DNA of 64,000 bases from a virus, in IMG/VR virus record IMGVR_UViG_3300046534_001374, positions 1 through 64,000 of that record, one strand, 5' to 3'. The notes under the pieces are model-generated. The model searched no databases. It had not been told where the DNA came from and saw only the letters and a program-made list of their open reading frames with translations. A program made the position numbers and the translations under genes. Below are positions 18,291 through 41,514 of the stretch, piece after piece; position 1 is the first letter of the stretch, and the number at the start of each line of letters is the position of its first letter.

Positions 18291-18367
18291 TGGCAGGACC
18301 ACTCAGAATCGAACTGAGACGAGACAGAGTTTTGGAGACTCCCGCTCTACCATTGAGCTATAATCCT
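18291..18367 (-). tRNA. tRNA-Trp(CCA)
   Basis: Cloverleaf; anticodon loop CT-CCA-AA; encoded CCA end. Confidence 0.92.
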
Positions 18368-18368
18368 G

Positions 18369-18656
18369 TTATATTTTTAAAAAGTGGTATTCTTCTATAT
18401 TTCTATGTTCCTCTTCTGTCCAAATATTTTTAAGTCTATAAACATGATTGTTCCAAAAGAAGGGTTTCGCTTCGATCCATTTCTTACTTTCAAATTCGAA
18501 AACTTCTAAAGTCATAGGAGTATCATAAATAGTTTCTGGAACCAAACATTCTCTGAATGCTCTTTTGGTGTTTTGATCCAATTTAACCCAAGGAGTTTTG
18601 TTGGATAACATATCAGGAACCCAATCACACCAACAAGTATATTCTATATCGTTCAT
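18369..18656 (-). CDS. Hypothetical protein
   Basis: 95-aa ORF between tRNA genes. Confidence 0.6.
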   Translation of the reverse strand: MNDIEYTCWCDWVPDMLSNKTPWVKLDQNTKRAFRECLVPETIYDTPMTLEVFEFESKKWIEAKPFFWNNHVYRLKNIWTEEEHRNIEEYHFLKI

Positions 18657-18724
18657 ATTAGGTTATAAATTTATCTGGTCTTATTGGTTTTTTGGCAGGG
18701 ATCATTGACTTGATACAACATATT

Positions 18725-18797
18725 TGGTCAGGCGAGAAGATTCGATACTTCATCTCCCACCTCCAACGGTGGGCGCATTAACTTATGCTATCTCCTG
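18725..18797 (-). tRNA. Atypical tRNA-Pro(TGG)-like
   Basis: C1-G72/A73 acceptor, CCA end, 8-nt anticodon loop CGTTGGAG, short D loop. Confidence 0.6.
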
Positions 18798-18798
18798 A

Positions 18799-18882
18799 AG
18801 GTGCAGCGGGTGGGTAACGCACCCACACAGGCCGAAGCCCACAGATTTACAATCTGCTTATCTCACTTATAACAGCCACTAC
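18799..18882 (-). tRNA. tRNA-Tyr(GTA), atypical D and T loops
   Basis: GCAGA-TTGTAAA-TCTGT arm, long variable arm, ends CCT. Confidence 0.7.
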
Positions 18883-19000
18883 ATGTTCGAGATGGTTATA
18901 TGTCCGGTGACTTATCAGCCAGCCCAACAACAAGCCCCATCTCTATATAACGCATCATACACTCAACCCGATATCAAGTCAAGCACTGTTTTGAATTATT

Positions 19001-19087
19001 TGGTGCAAGAGGAGAGATTCGAACTCTCTATTCCCGAAGGAAGTGGGATTACAATCCACCGCAACACGCCATCGTTGCCGCTCTTAC
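19001..19087 (-). tRNA. tRNA-Tyr(GTA)
   Basis: Loop TT-GTA-AT, long variable arm, TTCGAAT, CCA. Confidence 0.9.
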
Positions 19088-19093
19088 ATATTG

Positions 19094-19288
19094 TTAATGA
19101 TATTCTATGATCTCGTCTTCGTGTAGATCGTAAATCTCAAGATCGGCATATTTTAGTTTTACGTGTTTCTTAAACGATTTTGATCCTTTGAGGTTTTCTA
19201 AAGTGTTGAAATCTGCTACAAAATTTTCCATCCCTCCTGCGGAGGTTTCTTCGTAAGGTAGGCTGAATAACCAGTAGCGTTTCTTCAT
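19094..19288 (-). CDS. Small protein, paralog of 21473..21718
   Basis: KRYWLF...AGGM...F.T.E motif shared; own TTGACA promoter. Confidence 0.7.
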   Translation of the reverse strand: MKKRYWLFSLPYEETSAGGMENFVADFNTLENLKGSKSFKKHVKLKYADLEIYDLHEDEIIEYH

Positions 19289-19331
19289 GTCGTTATAGTA
19301 ACACCGTTTCTCAGGATGTCAATGTTTATTT

Positions 19332-19406
19332 TGGAAGCGCATGAAGGAATCGAACCTTCTTTTTTCGGATCAAAACCGAAAGTAATAACCAGTATACGAA
19401 TGCGCC
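19332..19406 (-). tRNA. tRNA-Gln(TTG)
   Basis: TTCGG-TTTTGAT-CCGAA arm; CCA. Confidence 0.92.
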
Positions 19407-19476
19407 GTATTTTAAAGTTTATAGGGCTGGATACAACATCCGTGCTTCAAAGGAGCATATTAGCTCTCCTATAAAA

Positions 19477-19553
19477 TGGTCACGGCGACAGGAATCGAAC
19501 CTGCGACATCTGAAATCCAAACTCAGCATTCTGCCACTATAATAATCCCCGTG
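19477..19553 (-). tRNA. tRNA-Pro(TGG)
   Basis: CTGAG-TTTGGAT-TTCAG arm; C1-G72, A73; CCA. Confidence 0.85.
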
Positions 19554-19715
19554 TTTTTAACATGGAACTTCTACACTAAAATATAAACTACAATTAAGAC
19601 ACCTATAAGAATCTTTATAATCACTCCCATTTTCTACCGATTCAACATCGGGGTGAACTTGGGCTTCTTTATCGGGATCTTCTTTAGTGCATACTTTACC
19701 AGCTTTCATAATAAA

Positions 19716-19787
19716 TGGTCGAGGGAGTAGGATTTGACACCCACATCGCCACCTCTACAGTGGTCATTTTGCTTAAACTATCCCTCG
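19716..19787 (-). tRNA. Atypical tRNA with Pro-type acceptor and non-canonical anticodon loop (TGTAGAG)
   Basis: CGAGGGA/TCCCTCG-A-CCA; same architecture as 18725..18797. Confidence 0.55.
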
Positions 19788-19790
19788 ATA

Positions 19791-19868
19791 TGGTATAGGT
19801 GGAGGGATTCGAACCCTCGATCTCTCGCCCCCAAAACGAGCGTCATAGCCAAACTAGACCACACCTAT
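19791..19868 (-). tRNA. tRNA-Pro(TGG)
   Basis: CTCGT-TTTGGGG-GCGAG arm; CCA. Confidence 0.9.
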
Positions 19869-19992
19869 ATGTTGAGAATAATACGTCTGTCTAACGCTAG
19901 AGCCATTACTTGGTTCACTCGGTTTGGGTGCTTACCACATCCATTACGCCGACTCTCTGTGTGGTCTCTCTCACACCACTACTATTATTTAA

Positions 19993-20078
19993 TTCATATG
20001 GAAGGATTCGAACCTCCGGTCCCCGTTAAGGGACACCAGTTTTTTAAATCAGTTGCTTTAAGCCACTCAGCCACATAC
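19993..20078 (-). pseudogene. Degenerate type-II (Ser/Leu-like) tRNA, anticodon undetermined
   Basis: D arm GGCTGAGTGGCTTAAAGC, long variable arm and T arm intact; anticodon arm mispaired; no CCA. Confidence 0.55.
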
Positions 20079-20351
20079 AAAATCATTTACAATTAAAATT
20101 CACACAATTTATCAAACTCTTCAGTTTTCCTATAAATCTTACACTCTGACAAAGCTTTACATACTCGCCTCAAAGCTTCCACATTTGGTCCGATCATATT
20201 GTCGATAAAGGCTCTTCGTGTGGTCTCTCACACCACTACTATTAGTATTACTACAATCTTCAAATATTACAAGAGAAAGTTGCAACTTTCTCAAGCAGTC
20301 CTTCATTTATTCGGATGAGCCTGAAGTCAGCATTCTCGCTTGAAGACTTTA

Positions 20352-20924
20352 TTAAAAATTAATACCCTTGTATAACAAGGAAATAGGTAAGTTCCACATA
20401 GGAACATGACATCTGAAACCATTCGAAGGATCTACGTCACCTTTATCTACAAATTTAGCTTTCTCAAAGAATTCTTTTGATGATATGAAACCACACAACC
20501 ACAATTTTTTAAGGTTTTTATATTTTACGTTTACGCCACTACCCGATTTAGATCCATAAGTTATAGATGCAAACGCATATATTTCTGGTTTTTGATGCAA
20601 GCTAGTTTTTGCAATGGATACCTCATAATTTAGTCTCGGGTCAACCGTTCTTCTTTTGGTTTTAACCTCAATAGTTTTCCCATTAAACTCTAAATCATGA
20701 TTGTATTTTTTATACCCTTCATCACATGAAACGACATCAGCACCTACATGTGATGCTATTGCTGCTTCCGATAAGTAGCCAGCCCTATTACCTTTACCCG
20801 AAGTTATAGAGTTATTCAAAACTCCAAGTTCTTTTGATTTTTTAATAGCATCTTTCAACATCCAAGTTTTTATATCTAAAGTTTCCATTAGATATAAAAT
20901 ACCATGTGTCATGGGCTTTTTCAA
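20352..20924 (-). CDS. PD-(D/E)xK nuclease-like protein
   Basis: E...HDL...IEVKTK motif. Confidence 0.55.
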   Translation of the reverse strand: MKKPMTHGILYLMETLDIKTWMLKDAIKKSKELGVLNNSITSGKGNRAGYLSEAAIASHVGADVVSCDEGYKKYNHDLEFNGKTIEVKTKRRTVDPRLNYEVSIAKTSLHQKPEIYAFASITYGSKSGSGVNVKYKNLKKLWLCGFISSKEFFEKAKFVDKGDVDPSNGFRCHVPMWNLPISLLYKGINF

Positions 20925-21151
20925 ATTAATTCTTCAAAATCTCTCAAAAATCTTTTACTCTTCATTCTAGAAAAATCAATTTCACTTTCAACTGAATTGG
21001 CCCAACGGTCAAAGTCAGTATCACTGATATGAAGAATATTACCTATAATCCGAAAATGCCTACTTTTGTATGTCTTAAGGGTATAGTCGGATTTGTCGAA
21101 TTTCAAATCGTGATTTGCTTCCAACGTTTCTACTACTTCTTCAGTTGTCAT
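20921..21151 (-). CDS. Hypothetical protein
   Basis: 76-aa ORF with TTGACA-17-TAAAGT upstream. Confidence 0.65.
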   Translation of the reverse strand: MTTEEVVETLEANHDLKFDKSDYTLKTYKSRHFRIIGNILHISDTDFDRWANSVESEIDFSRMKSKRFLRDFEELI

Positions 21152-21211
21152 TACCCCTGAACTTTAGCATTCAAAATCGATTGTGTCAACAATCTTTTAA
21201 CTTTATTTTAT

Positions 21212-21259
21212 AGCGACCGTCCTGCTTTTCAGGGGAACACGAATTTTAATCTCGCCGCT
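21212..21259 (-). ncRNA. Conserved post-attenuator structured RNA, copy 1
   Basis: AGCGGC-GAGATTAAAATTC-GTGTT-CCCCT-GAAA-AGCAGG-ACG-GTCGCT; three copies in the window with covariation. Confidence 0.85.
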
Positions 21260-21268
21260 TCTGTCTAT

Positions 21269-21349
21269 AAAAAAACCCTAACCGAATGAACGGGTAGGGT
21301 CAAGAAATATTGTAATTTAGTTTATCAACTACACACAATTTCTAGACCC
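21269..21349 (-). promoter_or_regulatory. Attenuator 1: antiterminator overlapping an intrinsic terminator
   Basis: Terminator ACCCTACCCG/CGGTTAGGGT plus T run; competing GGGTCTAGAAAT/ATTTCTTGACCC helix uses the terminator's ACCC. Confidence 0.85.
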
Positions 21350-21400
21350 ATCCATCGGTGGATAGGGTTGTTGCCATTGTTGCTGGAAGATGTTCTTCAT
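21329..21400 (-). CDS. Leader peptide 1, MKNIFQQQWQQPYPPMDGSRNCV
   Basis: Manual translation; 10 consecutive Gln/Trp/Pro/Tyr codons; promoter TTGAAA-16-TATAAGTA upstream. Confidence 0.85.
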   Translation of the reverse strand: MKNIFQQQWQQPYPPMDGSRNCV

Positions 21401-21472
21401 TACGTTTTTACTTATACCACATGTTTGCACTTTTTCAAGGAAATTGTGAATTATTTTAATTGGAGTTAAATC

Positions 21473-21718
21473 CTAAGCCCTCTTCACAACTTCCCCAACA
21501 TACGAATCATAGATATGGTAATCGTCTGAACCATCATATTCTTTCACACTACCCCAAAGTTCAGAACTTGTTAATTCTTCTATAGTATCAAATCTACCTT
21601 TAAGGTCATCCATACCACCCGCAGCCTCATAGTCATTAAACGCAAACAACCAGTATCGTTTTACGTTATTACTTCTTTCAGTTATCATATTATTATAATA
21701 TGTGTTGAATTTTCCCAT
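21473..21718 (-). CDS. Putative internal head protein, paralog of 19094..19288
   Basis: Extra N-terminal MGKFNTYYNNMITE before the shared domain. Confidence 0.65.
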   Translation of the reverse strand: MGKFNTYYNNMITERSNNVKRYWLFAFNDYEAAGGMDDLKGRFDTIEELTSSELWGSVKEYDGSDDYHIYDSYVGEVVKRA

Positions 21719-21732
21719 ATTACTACTTATGT

Positions 21733-22440
21733 TTAATTTGACACAAACTTAGGAACCGACCCATTGTAATTTGTGTCGATATTTACAACGTCATCGTCAT
21801 CACAAGGTCTTGGGTTGATCATGTATAAATTAGACTCTAATACTTCCACAGGTGATTCTGTGAAGAAGAACACTGCTCTATCGCAACGACCACAGGAAAA
21901 TTTATCATTCACCATGCGGCTAACCTTTGCGTCATCCGACAACTCATCAAACTCACCACCATATTTGGCATGAGCAGATTGTCTTGTTGCGTTATCGGCA
22001 AATTCAGGATTGTCGTAATTTGGTGTTCTGCTGCGAGATTTAATATACTCCTTAACTTTAAAGGGATTGTATGTAATTGGCTCGTATGGTCTCGAACGAA
22101 TCTCTTCGATGATCTCATCCATTGTTAGGTCGATATCATCAACCTTACCATATACTAGCGATTGCACACTTTTAGTATTCTTAGCGATAATTGTTTTCGT
22201 GGTATTTTGTGCAATATAAAATTTACAGTCATCCAGAATCAATCCTTTAGTTCTGAATTTATCGCCATCGGGTCTCACCAAAACCTTATTTCCTTTTTTG
22301 ACAGACCATTGCCCGTTATACTTTCCACCCTCAAGAACGTAGTGAACACCAACGATCTCATTTTCTAGATATTGTGTATCTGGCGAAAATTCTTGGAGTA
22401 ATGTCGATCCAATCGACTGTAAGGTTTTTTCGAAATTCAT
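21733..22440 (-). CDS. Hypothetical protein, putative internal head protein
   Basis: N-terminus MNFEKTLQSIGSTLLQE. Confidence 0.6.
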   Translation of the reverse strand: MNFEKTLQSIGSTLLQEFSPDTQYLENEIVGVHYVLEGGKYNGQWSVKKGNKVLVRPDGDKFRTKGLILDDCKFYIAQNTTKTIIAKNTKSVQSLVYGKVDDIDLTMDEIIEEIRSRPYEPITYNPFKVKEYIKSRSRTPNYDNPEFADNATRQSAHAKYGGEFDELSDDAKVSRMVNDKFSCGRCDRAVFFFTESPVEVLESNLYMINPRPCDDDDVVNIDTNYNGSVPKFVSN

Positions 22441-28791: not shown

Positions 28792-28839
28792 AGCGTCCGT
28801 CCTGCCCGAAGGGGGATCACGAATTTTAATCTCAACGCT
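28792..28839 (-). ncRNA. Conserved post-attenuator structured RNA, copy 2
   Basis: AGCGTT-GAGATTAAAATTC-GTGAT-CCCCC-TTCG-GGCAGG-ACG-GACGCT. Confidence 0.85.
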
Positions 28840-28847
28840 ACTAAACC

Positions 28848-28913
28848 AAAAAAGCCTTACTCGTTAAAGTAAGGCAAATTCAATCTTAGATTCTAAAACA
28901 AATATTACCTTAC
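28848..28913 (-). promoter_or_regulatory. Attenuator 2: antiterminator overlapping an intrinsic terminator
   Basis: Terminator GCCTTACT/AGTAAGGC plus T run; competing GTAAGGTAA/TTGCCTTAC helix begins at the leader stop codon. Confidence 0.88.
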
Positions 28914-28984
28914 GGAAGAGTGGTATCCTCTCCGTGTTCTACTACGACTGTTGTGCCGTGGTTGAAGTTAGTAACGTTGTTCAT
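28910..28984 (-). CDS. Leader peptide 2, MNNVTNFNHGTTVVVEHGEDTTLP
   Basis: Manual translation; 14 consecutive His/Gly/Thr/Val/Glu/Asp codons; promoter TTGATT-16-TATAAATA upstream. Confidence 0.88.
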   Translation of the reverse strand: MNNVTNFNHGTTVVVEHGEDTTLP

Positions 28985-29039
28985 GTTTTTATTTATAGCA
29001 GGTCTTGATAAGAAATCAAGAACTTTGTTGATTTATTTT

Positions 29040-29119: not shown

Positions 29120-29203
29120 TGGTGGACCACAAGAGAATCGAACTCTTTTAACTTTAATGCTATCTTGCAAGGATAGTGCAACACCCATGTTACCATGCAG
29201 CCC
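29120..29203 (-). tRNA. tRNA-Ala(TGC) with extended variable region
   Basis: CTATC-CTTGCAA-GATAG arm; G3:U70; CCA. Confidence 0.85.
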
Positions 29204-29214
29204 TTTGATGTTTT

Positions 29215-29244
29215 TATTTATAGCAAACTACACCAATTTGTCAA
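29215..29244 (-). promoter_or_regulatory. Promoter for the Ala/Arg(TCG) tRNA pair
   Basis: TTGACA-N13-TGC-TATAAATA, same layout as the three leader promoters. Confidence 0.75.
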
Positions 29245-29247
29245 CTT

Positions 29248-34866: not shown

Positions 34867-34975
34867 CGGTGCGCCCAATCAGATTCGAACTGATAACCTA
34901 GCCTTTATCCACGTAACACACTAAGATCAGTATGTTACGAAAGAGAAGCTTACTCTACCCTTGAGTTATAAGCGC
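34867..34975 (-). tRNA. tRNA-Ile(GAT) interrupted by a 34-nt hairpin insertion
   Basis: Removing 34910..34943 restores AGCTT-CTGATAA-AGGCT. Confidence 0.75.
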
Positions 34976-35126: not shown

Positions 35127-35204
35127 TGATGCGAGAGTTGGAATCGAACCAACGACACAACTATCTTCTCGATAGTTTGCTCTATCCAATTGAGCTATCT
35201 CGCA
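35127..35204 (-). tRNA. tRNA-like RNA with extended anticodon stem, identity undetermined
   Basis: Canonical D and T arms; AACTATC-GAGAA-GATAGTT arm. Confidence 0.6.
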
Positions 35205-36072: not shown

Positions 36073-36148
36073 TAGTAGTTTCCCCCAGATTCGAACTGAG
36101 AAACATCAGTTATTAACCGACTGCTTTACCTAATTTGCATAGGAAACT
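36073..36148 (-). tRNA. tRNA-Ile(AAT)
   Basis: GTCGG-TTAATAA-CTGAT arm; 3' end A-CTA. Confidence 0.75.
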
Positions 36149-39631: not shown

Positions 39632-39707
39632 TACTCTAACCTCTGGAATTGAACCAGAGTCTGCCGCTTTATAAGCCGCCGTAATTTCCAATTATACCAA
39701 GTTATTT
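39632..39707 (-). pseudogene. Degenerate tRNA, anticodon ATA or TAT
   Basis: D and T arms intact, GCGGCTTATAAAGCGGC arm, broken acceptor stem. Confidence 0.5.
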
Positions 39708-39749: not shown

Positions 39750-39824
39750 TGAAGTCAAGAGTTAGATTCGAACTAACGACACTCCCTCAATTAAAGGCTG
39801 CTCTAACCACTGAGCTATCTTGAC
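39750..39824 (-). tRNA. tRNA-like RNA with malformed anticodon loop, paralog of 35127..35204
   Basis: Canonical D and T arms and acceptor; GCCTT-TAATTG-AGGGA arm; 3' T-TCA. Confidence 0.6.
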
Positions 39825-39828
39825 TTAT

Positions 39829-40113: not shown

Positions 40114-40206
40114 TGGAGCGGAGGAACCGATTCGAACGGCTATCTGTTCTCAGTTGTATAAGGTTAGGCTTGGATTCGCCCTGTGCTGCCATTACACCAC
40201 CTCCGC
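40114..40206 (-). tRNA. Atypical tRNA-Gly(TCC)-like RNA
   Basis: GCGGAGG/CCTCCGC-T-CCA Gly-type acceptor; 8-nt loop GAATCCAA; unstructured long variable region. Confidence 0.55.
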
Positions 40207-40215
40207 TTTTTACTG

Positions 40216-40608
40216 TTACCAGTCAATATTTATAACGTATTCTCCTGCTTCGATCAAGCCCTTTTTGAATAAATCGTCAAAGAGTATTTCGATGTTTGGA
40301 AAGAAATTCCGTTCCCAAAACATTTCAAGAGTCCAAGCAGAGTCGGATTCTGAAAGTTGTTCTGTGGGATCTCGCTCAAGCCAGTCTTTCAAAGAAACAG
40401 AACCATACTCATTTTTAATGATATCCTCTAGGACATATCCTTCTAGGACATATCCTTCTTCAACATCTTTCACAGGAACTTTTACATATTGGGTTCCTCT
40501 TGCTCTACAACCAAATTGTTGCTGAAAGCTAAAAGGTCTTTTGTAAGTTTCCTCGATGAAATCGTCCAAATCTGAGACTTGGACATATTTTATGGTTTCG
40601 TATTTCAT
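40216..40608 (-). CDS. Hypothetical protein
   Basis: 130-aa ORF ending GEYVINIDW. Confidence 0.7.
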   Translation of the reverse strand: MKYETIKYVQVSDLDDFIEETYKRPFSFQQQFGCRARGTQYVKVPVKDVEEGYVLEGYVLEDIIKNEYGSVSLKDWLERDPTEQLSESDSAWTLEMFWERNFFPNIEILFDDLFKKGLIEAGEYVINIDW

Positions 40609-41129: not shown

Positions 41130-41178
41130 AGCGAACGTCCTGCCATTTCTGGGGGCACCGAATTTTAATCTCTCCGCT
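41130..41178 (-). ncRNA. Conserved post-attenuator structured RNA, copy 3
   Basis: AGCGGA-GAGATTAAAATTC-GGTG-CCCCCA-GAAA-TGGCAGG-ACG-TTCGCT. Confidence 0.85.
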
Positions 41179-41184
41179 TGAAAT

Positions 41185-41257
41185 AAAAAACCCATTTAAC
41201 TGTTAAGCTAAATGGGTGTCGTATTTCTAAAATCTTTATTTTATACTTAACACACCC
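41185..41257 (-). promoter_or_regulatory. Attenuator 3: antiterminator overlapping an intrinsic terminator
   Basis: Terminator ACCCATTTAGC/GTTAAATGGGT plus T run; competing GGGTGT/ACACCC helix from the last leader codons. Confidence 0.8.
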
Positions 41258-41324
41258 GCAGGGAATTACTTCTCTTGCAAAAGAGAGATCTTCCTAAATT
41301 TATGTTTGACATAATGTGTTTCAT
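41247..41324 (-). CDS. Leader peptide 3, MKHIMSNINLGRSLFCKRSNSLRVC
   Basis: Manual translation; 20/25 codons specify Met/Lys/Ile/Ser/Asn/Leu/Arg/Phe; promoter TTGCAA-16-TATAAGTA upstream. Confidence 0.8.
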   Translation of the reverse strand: MKHIMSNINLGRSLFCKRSNSLRVC

Positions 41325-41514
41325 TGGCTTTGTTGTTATTACTTATAGCAGAGGTTTGCTCTTTTGCAATTAAAATGTTAATTTTTTTAAGTTGGTGTTA
41401 GAGCGGGATTTGCACCCACATATTGTAGCTATATCAATATTCCACATACTACTTCAAAATCACTCACTTTCTAGAATTAAGAGCAATTTTTGCAGTGGAC
41501 CTAAACTTTTAAAT

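Follow-up and report, generated by a model that had tools for sequence, protein, structure and literature searches.

Leader-peptide attenuators, exemplified by trpL, hisL, pheL and leuL, control amino-acid biosynthesis operons. Some leaders are multivalent: the thr leader senses Thr and Ile, and that of ilvGMEDA senses Ile, Leu and Val. Phage tRNA genes are usually viewed as constitutive codon-usage helpers or as anti-defence decoys, and to our knowledge the control of their expression is essentially unknown. Older reports are said to have dealt with the sequences flanking pheU and pheV, the tRNA-Phe genes of E. coli. A full-text literature search retrieved no description of phage tRNA genes controlled by leader-peptide attenuation. 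The leader-peptide transcription attenuators of biosynthesis operons have been summarised together with data from Deinococcus deserti, in which leaderless leader peptides have been proposed to act in attenuation and leader peptides located before aminoacyl-tRNA synthetase genes start at the transcript 5' end (PMC4007540).

The element described here (unit 1, positions 21269-21440, minus strand) consists of a promoter, a 23-codon ORF, three overlapping helices and a U-run, and is probably a leader-peptide attenuator gating, or more exactly modulating, the transcription of phage tRNA genes. The proposal draws on sequence features, alternative helices, the in silico dependence of folding on ribosome position and codon/tRNA statistics; there are no expression, ribosome or termination data. 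As in trpL, hisL, pheL and leuL, a short ORF with clustered regulatory codons is combined with overlapping 1:2, 2:3 and 3:4 helices and an intrinsic terminator, and the position of the ribosome would decide the outcome. Unlike in trpL-type systems, the putative targets are phage tRNA genes and not biosynthetic enzymes, a Shine-Dalgarno (SD) sequence is absent from all leaders, there is little or no 5' UTR, the stop codon is placed within or beyond strand 2, the unit 1 RNA without a ribosome favours the 2:3 and 1:4 pairings, and a conserved 48-nt RNA follows the terminator. Several amino acids would be sensed by one mixed codon run, as in the thr and ilvGMEDA leaders, but the mix of Gln, Trp, Pro and Tyr follows the tRNA block and no metabolic pathway. 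The pheST attenuator and the synthetase leaders of D. deserti (PMC4007540) likewise direct attenuation to the translation apparatus and not to biosynthesis; there, synthetase proteins and one amino acid are involved, whereas here the unit concerns tRNA genes and several amino acids, in a virus. T-box riboswitches share the coupling of read-through to a specific tRNA state via a choice between terminator and antiterminator. However, the T-box binds uncharged tRNA directly, without translation, spans 200-300 nt and carries a specifier loop and a T-box sequence, whereas here the ORF would do the sensing. A T-box riboswitch at this site was considered and rejected: cmscan of 21200-21450, with E up to 1, detected no T-box or other non-tRNA family, and the element measures only ~135 nt. 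What differs is the proposed viral tRNA-gene target, the codon mix set by the tRNA block, the leaderless-type start and the conserved post-terminator RNA, while the mechanism itself is known.

The window analysed (64,000 nucleotides) is the first 64 kb of an IMG/VR contig of 139,595 bp, estimated to be ~65% complete, with a G+C content of ~38% and coding for rIIA and rIIB homologues. Its source is a large uncultured T4-like phage. A DNA search of 20800-22000 against cultured phages gave no match, and the best matches of the rIIA proteins were only 25-36% identical, so that no annotated relative is available. Near-identical DNA is present in ice or seawater metagenomes; every run containing it consisted of DNA contigs, and no RNA run was found among the sequencing runs listed as containing it. 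Unit 1 was identical in contigs from four sequencing runs, with zero variants, leaving no natural variation to exploit. ARAGORN predicted 28 tRNA genes on the contig, all on the minus strand (18291-40206) and all downstream of unit 1 or of two further units of the same kind. The parts of unit 1 and the DNA directly behind it are:

21411-21438, minus strand: promoter of unit 1, with TTGAAA (21438-21433), a 16-nt spacer and TGgTATAAG (21419-21411).
21329-21400, minus strand: leader ORF of 23 codons plus TAG, encoding the peptide MKNIFQQQWQQPYPPMDGSRNCV; ATG at 21400-21398, stop TAG at 21331-21329.
21359-21368, minus strand: strand 1, ACCCTATCCA, overlying the Gln11-Pro-Tyr-Pro codons.
21338-21354, minus strand: strand 2, TGGATGGGTCTAGAAAT; its 5' part pairs with strand 1, and GGGTC.TAGAAAT pairs with strand 3 as the antiterminator.
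21291-21308, minus strand: strand 3, in which ATTTCT.TGACCC is the 3' half of the antiterminator and ACCCTACCCG the 5' arm of the terminator, ACCC being common to both.
21269-21284, minus strand: strand 4, CGGTTAGGGT (21284-21275), and the U-run, T6-7 (21274-21269), forming with strand 3 a predicted intrinsic terminator.
21212-21259, minus strand: 48-nt structured RNA element, starting 9 nt beyond the U-run.
21161-21189, minus strand: second promoter, TTGACA-17-TAAAGT.
20921-21151, minus strand: 76-aa ORF without a known function; a read-through transcript would reach this gene first.

The promoter architecture TTG-N19-TGnTATAA(G/A)T was found four times on the contig (at 21438, 29019, 29245 and 41369), and the promoter and start site of unit 1 are inferred from this four-fold paralogy only. 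A consensus scan missed the promoter of unit 1 because G is the last base of its -10 hexamer. Ten nucleotides separate this hexamer from the ATG, and the predicted 5' UTR measures only ~3-5 nt. The missing SD is normal in this phage, since an SD-like tetramer was found in only 9 of the 97 contig ORFs of at least 150 aa. TATAA[TAG] ending 7 nt before an ATG was observed 7 times against 0.7 expected, a ten-fold enrichment suggesting leaderless or nearly leaderless mRNAs; the distance from -10 to ATG is exactly 7 nt in unit 2, 10 nt in unit 1 and 17 nt in unit 3. Translation of the unit 1 leader remains an inference: it has no SD, a 5'-terminal AUG is unproven and no ribosome data exist.

Codons 6-15 of the leader (21385-21356) read CAG CAA CAA TGG CAA CAA CCC TAT CCA CCG on the minus strand, exactly as in the initial annotation of this DNA, and form a control run encoding QQQWQQPYPP. 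All three helices proposed in that annotation were recovered. Helix 1:2, which had been placed over the Pro/Tyr codons and does lie there, pairs ACCC(T)ATCCA (21368-21359) with TGGATGGGT (21354-21346) around a CCGA loop (-10.8 kcal/mol). Helix 2:3 joins GGGTC.TAGAAAT (21349-21338) to ATTTCT.TGACCC (21308-21297), with -20.7 kcal/mol including the apical hairpin, and helix 3:4 joins ACCCTACCCG (21300-21291) to CGGTTAGGGT (21284-21275), with -12.8 kcal/mol. Because helix 2:3 takes the ACCC of the terminator 5' arm, the antiterminator excludes the terminator, which agrees with the sequestration of ACCC that had been claimed. The predicted terminator hairpin (ACCCTACCCG-TTCATT-CGGTTAGGGT, 21300-21275) is located between the leader ORF and the downstream genes. 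The control codons overlap or precede strand 1, and the stop codon is positioned such that a ribosome completing the ORF would cover strand 2.

A repeat search and alignment identified three paralogous modules on the same strand. In each of them, a promoter of the same type is followed by a short ORF that is not conserved, then by a terminator and by the highly conserved 48-nt element. Besides unit 1, these are:

28848-29019, minus strand: unit 2, with a promoter, ATG at 28984, leader MNNVTNFNHGTTVVVEHGEDTTLP, stop codon TAA inside the antiterminator strand and terminator at 28875-28848.
41185-41369, minus strand: unit 3, with a promoter, ATG at 41324, leader MKHIMSNINLGRSLFCKRSNSLRVC and a terminator ending at ~41185.

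The tRNA genes behind unit 2 are Glu, Asp, Gly, Thr, Thr, Val, Gly and His, and those behind unit 3 are Ile, Lys, Asn, Ser, Met, Leu, Phe and Arg, plus several odd tRNAs. The fourth promoter copy (~29245-29205) has ATC where unit 2 has ATG; it is leaderless and leads directly into a tRNA-Ala(UGC)-like gene and a tRNA-Arg(UCG). The other copies of the 48-nt element are located at 28839-28792 and 41178-41131. The element is closed by the stem AGCGnn/nnCGCT and includes the hairpin GAG-AUUAAAA-UUC, which is invariant, as well as a third stem whose caps (GAAA/UUCG/GAGA) are interchangeable; it shows covariation. Together with one copy in a metagenomic relative (see below), the three copies of the contig all lie directly after an attenuator terminator, so that the element would be transcribed only on read-through. 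In Rfam, no family matched either the leader or the 48-nt element.

The tRNA block assigned to unit 1 extends over 18291-20081 on the minus strand and contains eight tRNA or tRNA-like genes:

18291-18367, minus strand: tRNA-Trp(CCA), solid.
19332-19406, minus strand: tRNA-Gln(UUG), solid.
19791-19868, minus strand: first tRNA-Pro(UGG), solid; Trp, Gln and this gene score 55-58 bits.
19477-19553, minus strand: second tRNA-Pro(UGG), weak (26.6 bits).
18800-18882, minus strand: tRNA-Tyr(GUA)-like gene, called by ARAGORN only, at a relaxed threshold, with a non-canonical T-loop.
19001-19078, minus strand: Gly(UCC)-like gene, poor.
19716-19787, minus strand: odd tRNA with G33 and an anticodon read as UAG.
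19992-20081, minus strand: type-II tRNA with an unclear anticodon.

The earlier statement that all confidently assigned tRNAs of this block are Trp, Pro, Tyr or Gln is correct, with caveats: Trp, Gln and one Pro are solid, while the second Pro is weak, Tyr depends on the relaxed threshold and three of the eight genes are aberrant, with the literal readings Gly, Leu and unknown.

The correspondence between leaders and tRNA sets was evaluated with expected frequencies taken from the amino-acid composition of the contig's own long ORFs. Over all six frames of the contig (139,595 bp), the single longest stretch of {Q,W,P,Y} codons is QQQWQQPYPP (21356-21385); the expected number of windows of this kind is 3.6e-4. 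Likewise, the run HGTTVVVEHGEDTT in leader 2 (28919-28960) is the longest contig-wide for {E,D,G,T,V,H}, the six specificities found among the eight tRNAs of unit 2 (6.8e-4 expected). The run test, which does not depend on the choice of ORF, agrees with a 3x3 table of leaders against tRNA sets, in which enrichment was found only on the diagonal (10/22 codons for leader 1, p 9e-5; 16/23 for leader 2, p 8e-4; 19/24 for leader 3, p ~1.3e-3) and the off-diagonal cells were at or below expectation. When Gly was added to the first set, the leader-1 run was still unique; when Leu was added as well (two of the aberrant tRNAs read literally as Gly and Leu), it was not, and 4 runs of at least 10 codons were found. 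The three leaders split 19 amino acids between them. No Ala codon occurs in any of them (p 0.013), and tRNA-Ala is the one located behind the leaderless fourth promoter copy.

A metagenome pattern scan with the 48-nt element retrieved one true and independent relative, L003 (2,544 bp), whose element scores 76 bits with model R1. Its parts follow the order of the units: leader MNTNCNTNKHEGGTEHSP, terminator, 48-nt element, promoter, a homologue of the 130-aa gene found behind unit 3 and, up to the end of the contig, tRNA genes for Glu, Asn, Lys, Gly and Cys. All five of these amino acids, the rare Cys included, are encoded by the leader (10/17 codons, p 0.008), so that, at the level of sequence, leader and tRNA set have changed together. 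Between unit 2 and L003, strands 2/3/4 change from GTAAGG/CCTTAC/GTAAGG to TTGAGG/CCTCAA/TTGAGG; these changes compensate each other, and thus both the antiterminator and the terminator are kept in L003. In unit 2 and L003 alike, the stop codon falls within strand 2. The peptides of unit 2 and L003 differ at most positions while the RNA switch is retained, and the three paralogous peptides and that of L003 are alike in composition only. This makes it extremely improbable that the 23-aa peptide matters as such, as a small protein of the phage, even though the ORF is intact and lies directly behind a promoter.

To simulate the effect of ribosome position, each transcript was folded up to and including strand 4 while the 30 nt surrounding the A-site codon, taken codon by codon, were masked. 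In unit 1, the terminator probability did not exceed 0.00-0.03 as long as the A site was at codons 1-13; it rose to 0.55 at codon 14 and to 0.82-0.83 between codon 15 and the stop, and it was ~0 whenever helix 2:3 was free to form. In unit 2 it was low only at codons 11-20, inside the control run, and reached 0.94-0.97 from codon 21 to the stop; in L003 it stayed at or below 0.15 through codon 14 and was 0.98 from codon 16 onwards. As a control for the switch score, the region between the ATG and the terminator was subjected to 120 dinucleotide shuffles. None of the 120 reached the score of unit 1 (0.80, against a shuffle mean of 0.01 and a maximum of 0.63), unit 2 (0.90) or L003 (0.95). Unit 3 showed a weak switch in silico, none of it clear (score 0.17, reached by 3/120 shuffles).

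These results support the trp-like model of the initial annotation, in which stalling on the control codons frees strand 2: every part of it that can be checked in the sequence is present, and masked folding switches where shuffled sequences do not. Nevertheless, for stalls on the last two Pro codons termination is predicted. Moreover, whereas masking gives the predicted switch, the naked RNA forms 2:3 together with 1:4, and not 1:2 together with 3:4. In the absence of a ribosome, incomplete transcripts form helix 1:2, which gives way to 2:3 once strand 3 emerges; the full-length RNA then forms a long composite hairpin with strand 1 on strand 4, beside the U-run. Since this is the equilibrium fold, the state of the untranslated RNA is uncertain.

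T4-type genomes are rich in promoter/stem-loop cassettes, and a scan of the region found 13 terminator-like sites against 3.8 expected. The hairpin could accordingly be an ordinary intergenic terminator of the upstream 81-aa gene next to an early promoter cassette, with a fortuitous ORF and fortuitous helices. It lies downstream of the promoter, however, and not upstream of it, and only ~4e-4 such codon runs are expected per genome. Neither the scores of unit 1, unit 2 and L003, beyond all the shuffles, nor the compensating three-strand changes would be anticipated from such an arrangement, which we hold to be very unlikely.

The unit 1 transcript is strongly structured (fold z-scores -4.2 and -5.3; 0/200 shuffles fold as well) and compact, features that would also fit a stand-alone sRNA gene with its own promoter, a ~135-nt transcript and a terminator, acting in trans like rnTrpL, the ORF being incidental or secondary. 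Terminated attenuator RNAs are known to act in trans, which gives this possibility a precedent (PMC7968998). However, what persists across the three units and L003 is the ORF, the position of its stop and the match of codons to tRNAs, and not the sequence of the leader RNAs, which cannot be aligned; there is no Rfam match, and the genome-wide extreme codon runs would be left unexplained. An sRNA gene therefore appears rather improbable.

Between the attenuator and the first tRNA gene there are at least ~1.1 kb, occupied by the 48-nt element, a promoter, two ORFs (76 aa and ~190 aa) and weak terminator-like hairpins, and sigma-70-like promoters (21189, 19322 and 18982) are found both in this interval and inside the tRNA block. 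Because of these intervening distance, ORFs, hairpins and promoters, the attenuator can modulate tRNA output and not be its sole gate. They also leave room for a real attenuator whose targets are the protein genes directly behind it (the two ORFs, and their equivalents at units 2 and 3), with the tRNAs transcribed mainly from proximal promoters. Indeed, ORFs of unknown function and TTGACA-type promoters precede the tRNAs in each unit, and the 130-aa family, present behind unit 3 and in L003, adjoins RNA-repair genes (Thg1-like, RlaP and RNA ligase) in other phages. Against this, the downstream ORFs vary between units while the codon content tracks the tRNA sets, also in L003, and the ORFs have no recognisable tie to Gln, Trp, Pro or Tyr; none of the ORFs behind the attenuators had a PHROG or Pfam match. 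Protein genes as the target are therefore considered unlikely, and modulation of the tRNA genes is the reading followed below.

In total, four instances of the module are available, three of which are paralogs. The other matches of the pattern scan (L002, L004 and L005) were discarded as chance occurrences inside coding sequence. IMG/VR scans with two patterns for the 48-nt element, with the 81-aa neighbour protein and with the exact leader 23-mer gave no match, and no other homologue of the 81-aa gene was found. Among the homologues fetched for the 76-aa gene (L014-L018) and the 130-aa gene (L007-L010), the closest, L018, starts just past the 48-nt element, so that its leader is missing; the remaining ones have another context, from which the module is absent. 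Of 80 IMG/VR loci fetched with the 130-aa family, only 12 carry tRNAs, and a crude terminator-plus-short-ORF screen of the four tRNA-rich loci, which come from more distant phages, yielded no codon-matched leader. Either the module is not general in the wider group, or the screen was too crude.

In the proposed mechanism, transcription would begin a few nucleotides before the ATG and a ribosome would translate the 23-codon leader. Slow decoding of Gln, Trp, Pro or Tyr codons would hold the ribosome on codons 6-13, covering strand 1; strand 2 would then pair with strand 3 and take the ACCC of the terminator, strand 4 would remain single and the polymerase would continue. The resulting read-through RNA would span the 48-nt element, both small ORFs and the genes of the tRNAs for Pro, Gln, Tyr and Trp. 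With fast decoding, the ribosome would reach codons 14-24 or the stop and cover strand 2, helix 3:4 would form and transcription would stop at the U-run. The physiological signal may be scarcity, depletion or cleavage of the host tRNAs. As the controlled tRNAs read the test codons, the loop would be self-limiting. Leader translation, ribosome-polymerase coupling, co-transcription of the distal tRNAs and the physiological signal are all inferred, as is the response of read-through to the supply of charged tRNA.

A broader and more tentative possibility, which we consider somewhat doubtful at present, is that the three units form a three-channel sensor of decoding capacity, in which three peptides split 19 amino acids, each gates its own tRNAs and Ala is excluded. 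The phage would top up exactly those tRNAs absent from the host or eliminated by its defences (anticodon nucleases, tRNA depletion) and would stop the supply when decoding is restored, and the 48-nt RNA would be a new element coupled to read-through. This RNA might serve as a processing or 5'-protection signal, or as a put-like signal making the polymerase resist downstream hairpins.

Natural controls for these ideas exist in the ATG-less promoter copy before tRNA-Ala and in L003, with its co-changed leader and tRNAs. If the attenuator operates as proposed, there would be a direct feedback from decoding speed to tRNA supply, and a textbook bacterial mechanism would be extended to a new class of targets and to viruses.

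A 48-nt RNA element begins 6-9 nt 3' of every attenuator U-run, with one copy for each of the three paralogous predicted leader-peptide attenuators (units 1, 2 and 3) and another in the metagenome relative L003.

21212-21259, 28792-28839 and 41131-41178, minus strand: 48-nt RNA element, contig copies
L003 1109-1156: 48-nt RNA element, metagenome relative

The element forms a three-way junction in which the closing stem covaries, the hairpin GAG-AUUAAAA-UUC is invariant, and the third stem is capped by interchangeable tetraloops (GAAA, UUCG or GAGA). No match to the element was found in Rfam. The preceding U-run could be a pairing partner for its A-rich loop.

The promoter of the units is also present in a fourth copy, without leader or terminator, which carries ATC at the position of the ATG of unit 2 and is immediately followed on its 3' side by a tRNA-Ala(UGC)-like gene and then tRNA-Arg(UCG). 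Alanine is the only amino acid missing from all leaders.

29205-29245, minus strand: unit promoter, fourth copy
29124-29200, minus strand: tRNA-gene stretch directly behind this copy

Around unit 1, two paralogous small proteins are encoded, one immediately upstream of the unit and the other within its tRNA block, preceded by its own TTGACA promoter. The same block contains an odd 90-nt type-II tRNA (19992-20081), bracketed by the two copies of a hairpin-forming repeat. The acceptor stem of this tRNA has 8 bp, its anticodon loop is rich in A, and it lacks CCA.

19094-19288 and 21473-21718, minus strand: paralogous small proteins
20212-20244 and 19955-19987, minus strand: copies of the repeat, each 33 nt, with the core GTGGTGTGAGAGACCACAC

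The contig has further unusual tRNAs and a tRNA-like 3' end.

35128-35204, 36075-36148, 39635-39705, 39751-39825, 40114-40206 and 34868-34975: tRNAs with unusual anticodon loops
41395-41425, minus strand: tRNA-like 3' end (T-arm GTGGG-TGCAAAT-CCCGC, then ..ACACCA)

For the unusual loops, ARAGORN returned A34 anticodons or left them undetermined; one tRNA of this group has a 34-nt insert in its anticodon loop, and is called Ile GAT in intron mode. The tRNA-like 3' end, recognised by neither ARAGORN nor Rfam, closes a structured stretch roughly 300 nt long and directly precedes the unit-3 promoter; similarly, the CCA end of a tRNA-Arg lies upstream of unit 2.

Behind unit 3 lies a gene whose protein family has more than 250 members, from large phages, marine and other.

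40219-40608, minus strand: 130-aa protein gene
L009 9016-11214: locus with a family member

Because in some phages the family gene is flanked by RlaP-like and Thg1-like genes, with an RNA ligase nearby, this context hints at a connection with tRNA repair.

Across the whole contig, only 9 of 97 genes have a Shine-Dalgarno sequence, and the 3' end of a TATAAT(T)A motif frequently lies precisely 7 nt before the ATG. Together, these features suggest that late mRNAs are widely leaderless, and the same start-site pattern suggests a host that does not depend on Shine-Dalgarno pairing.
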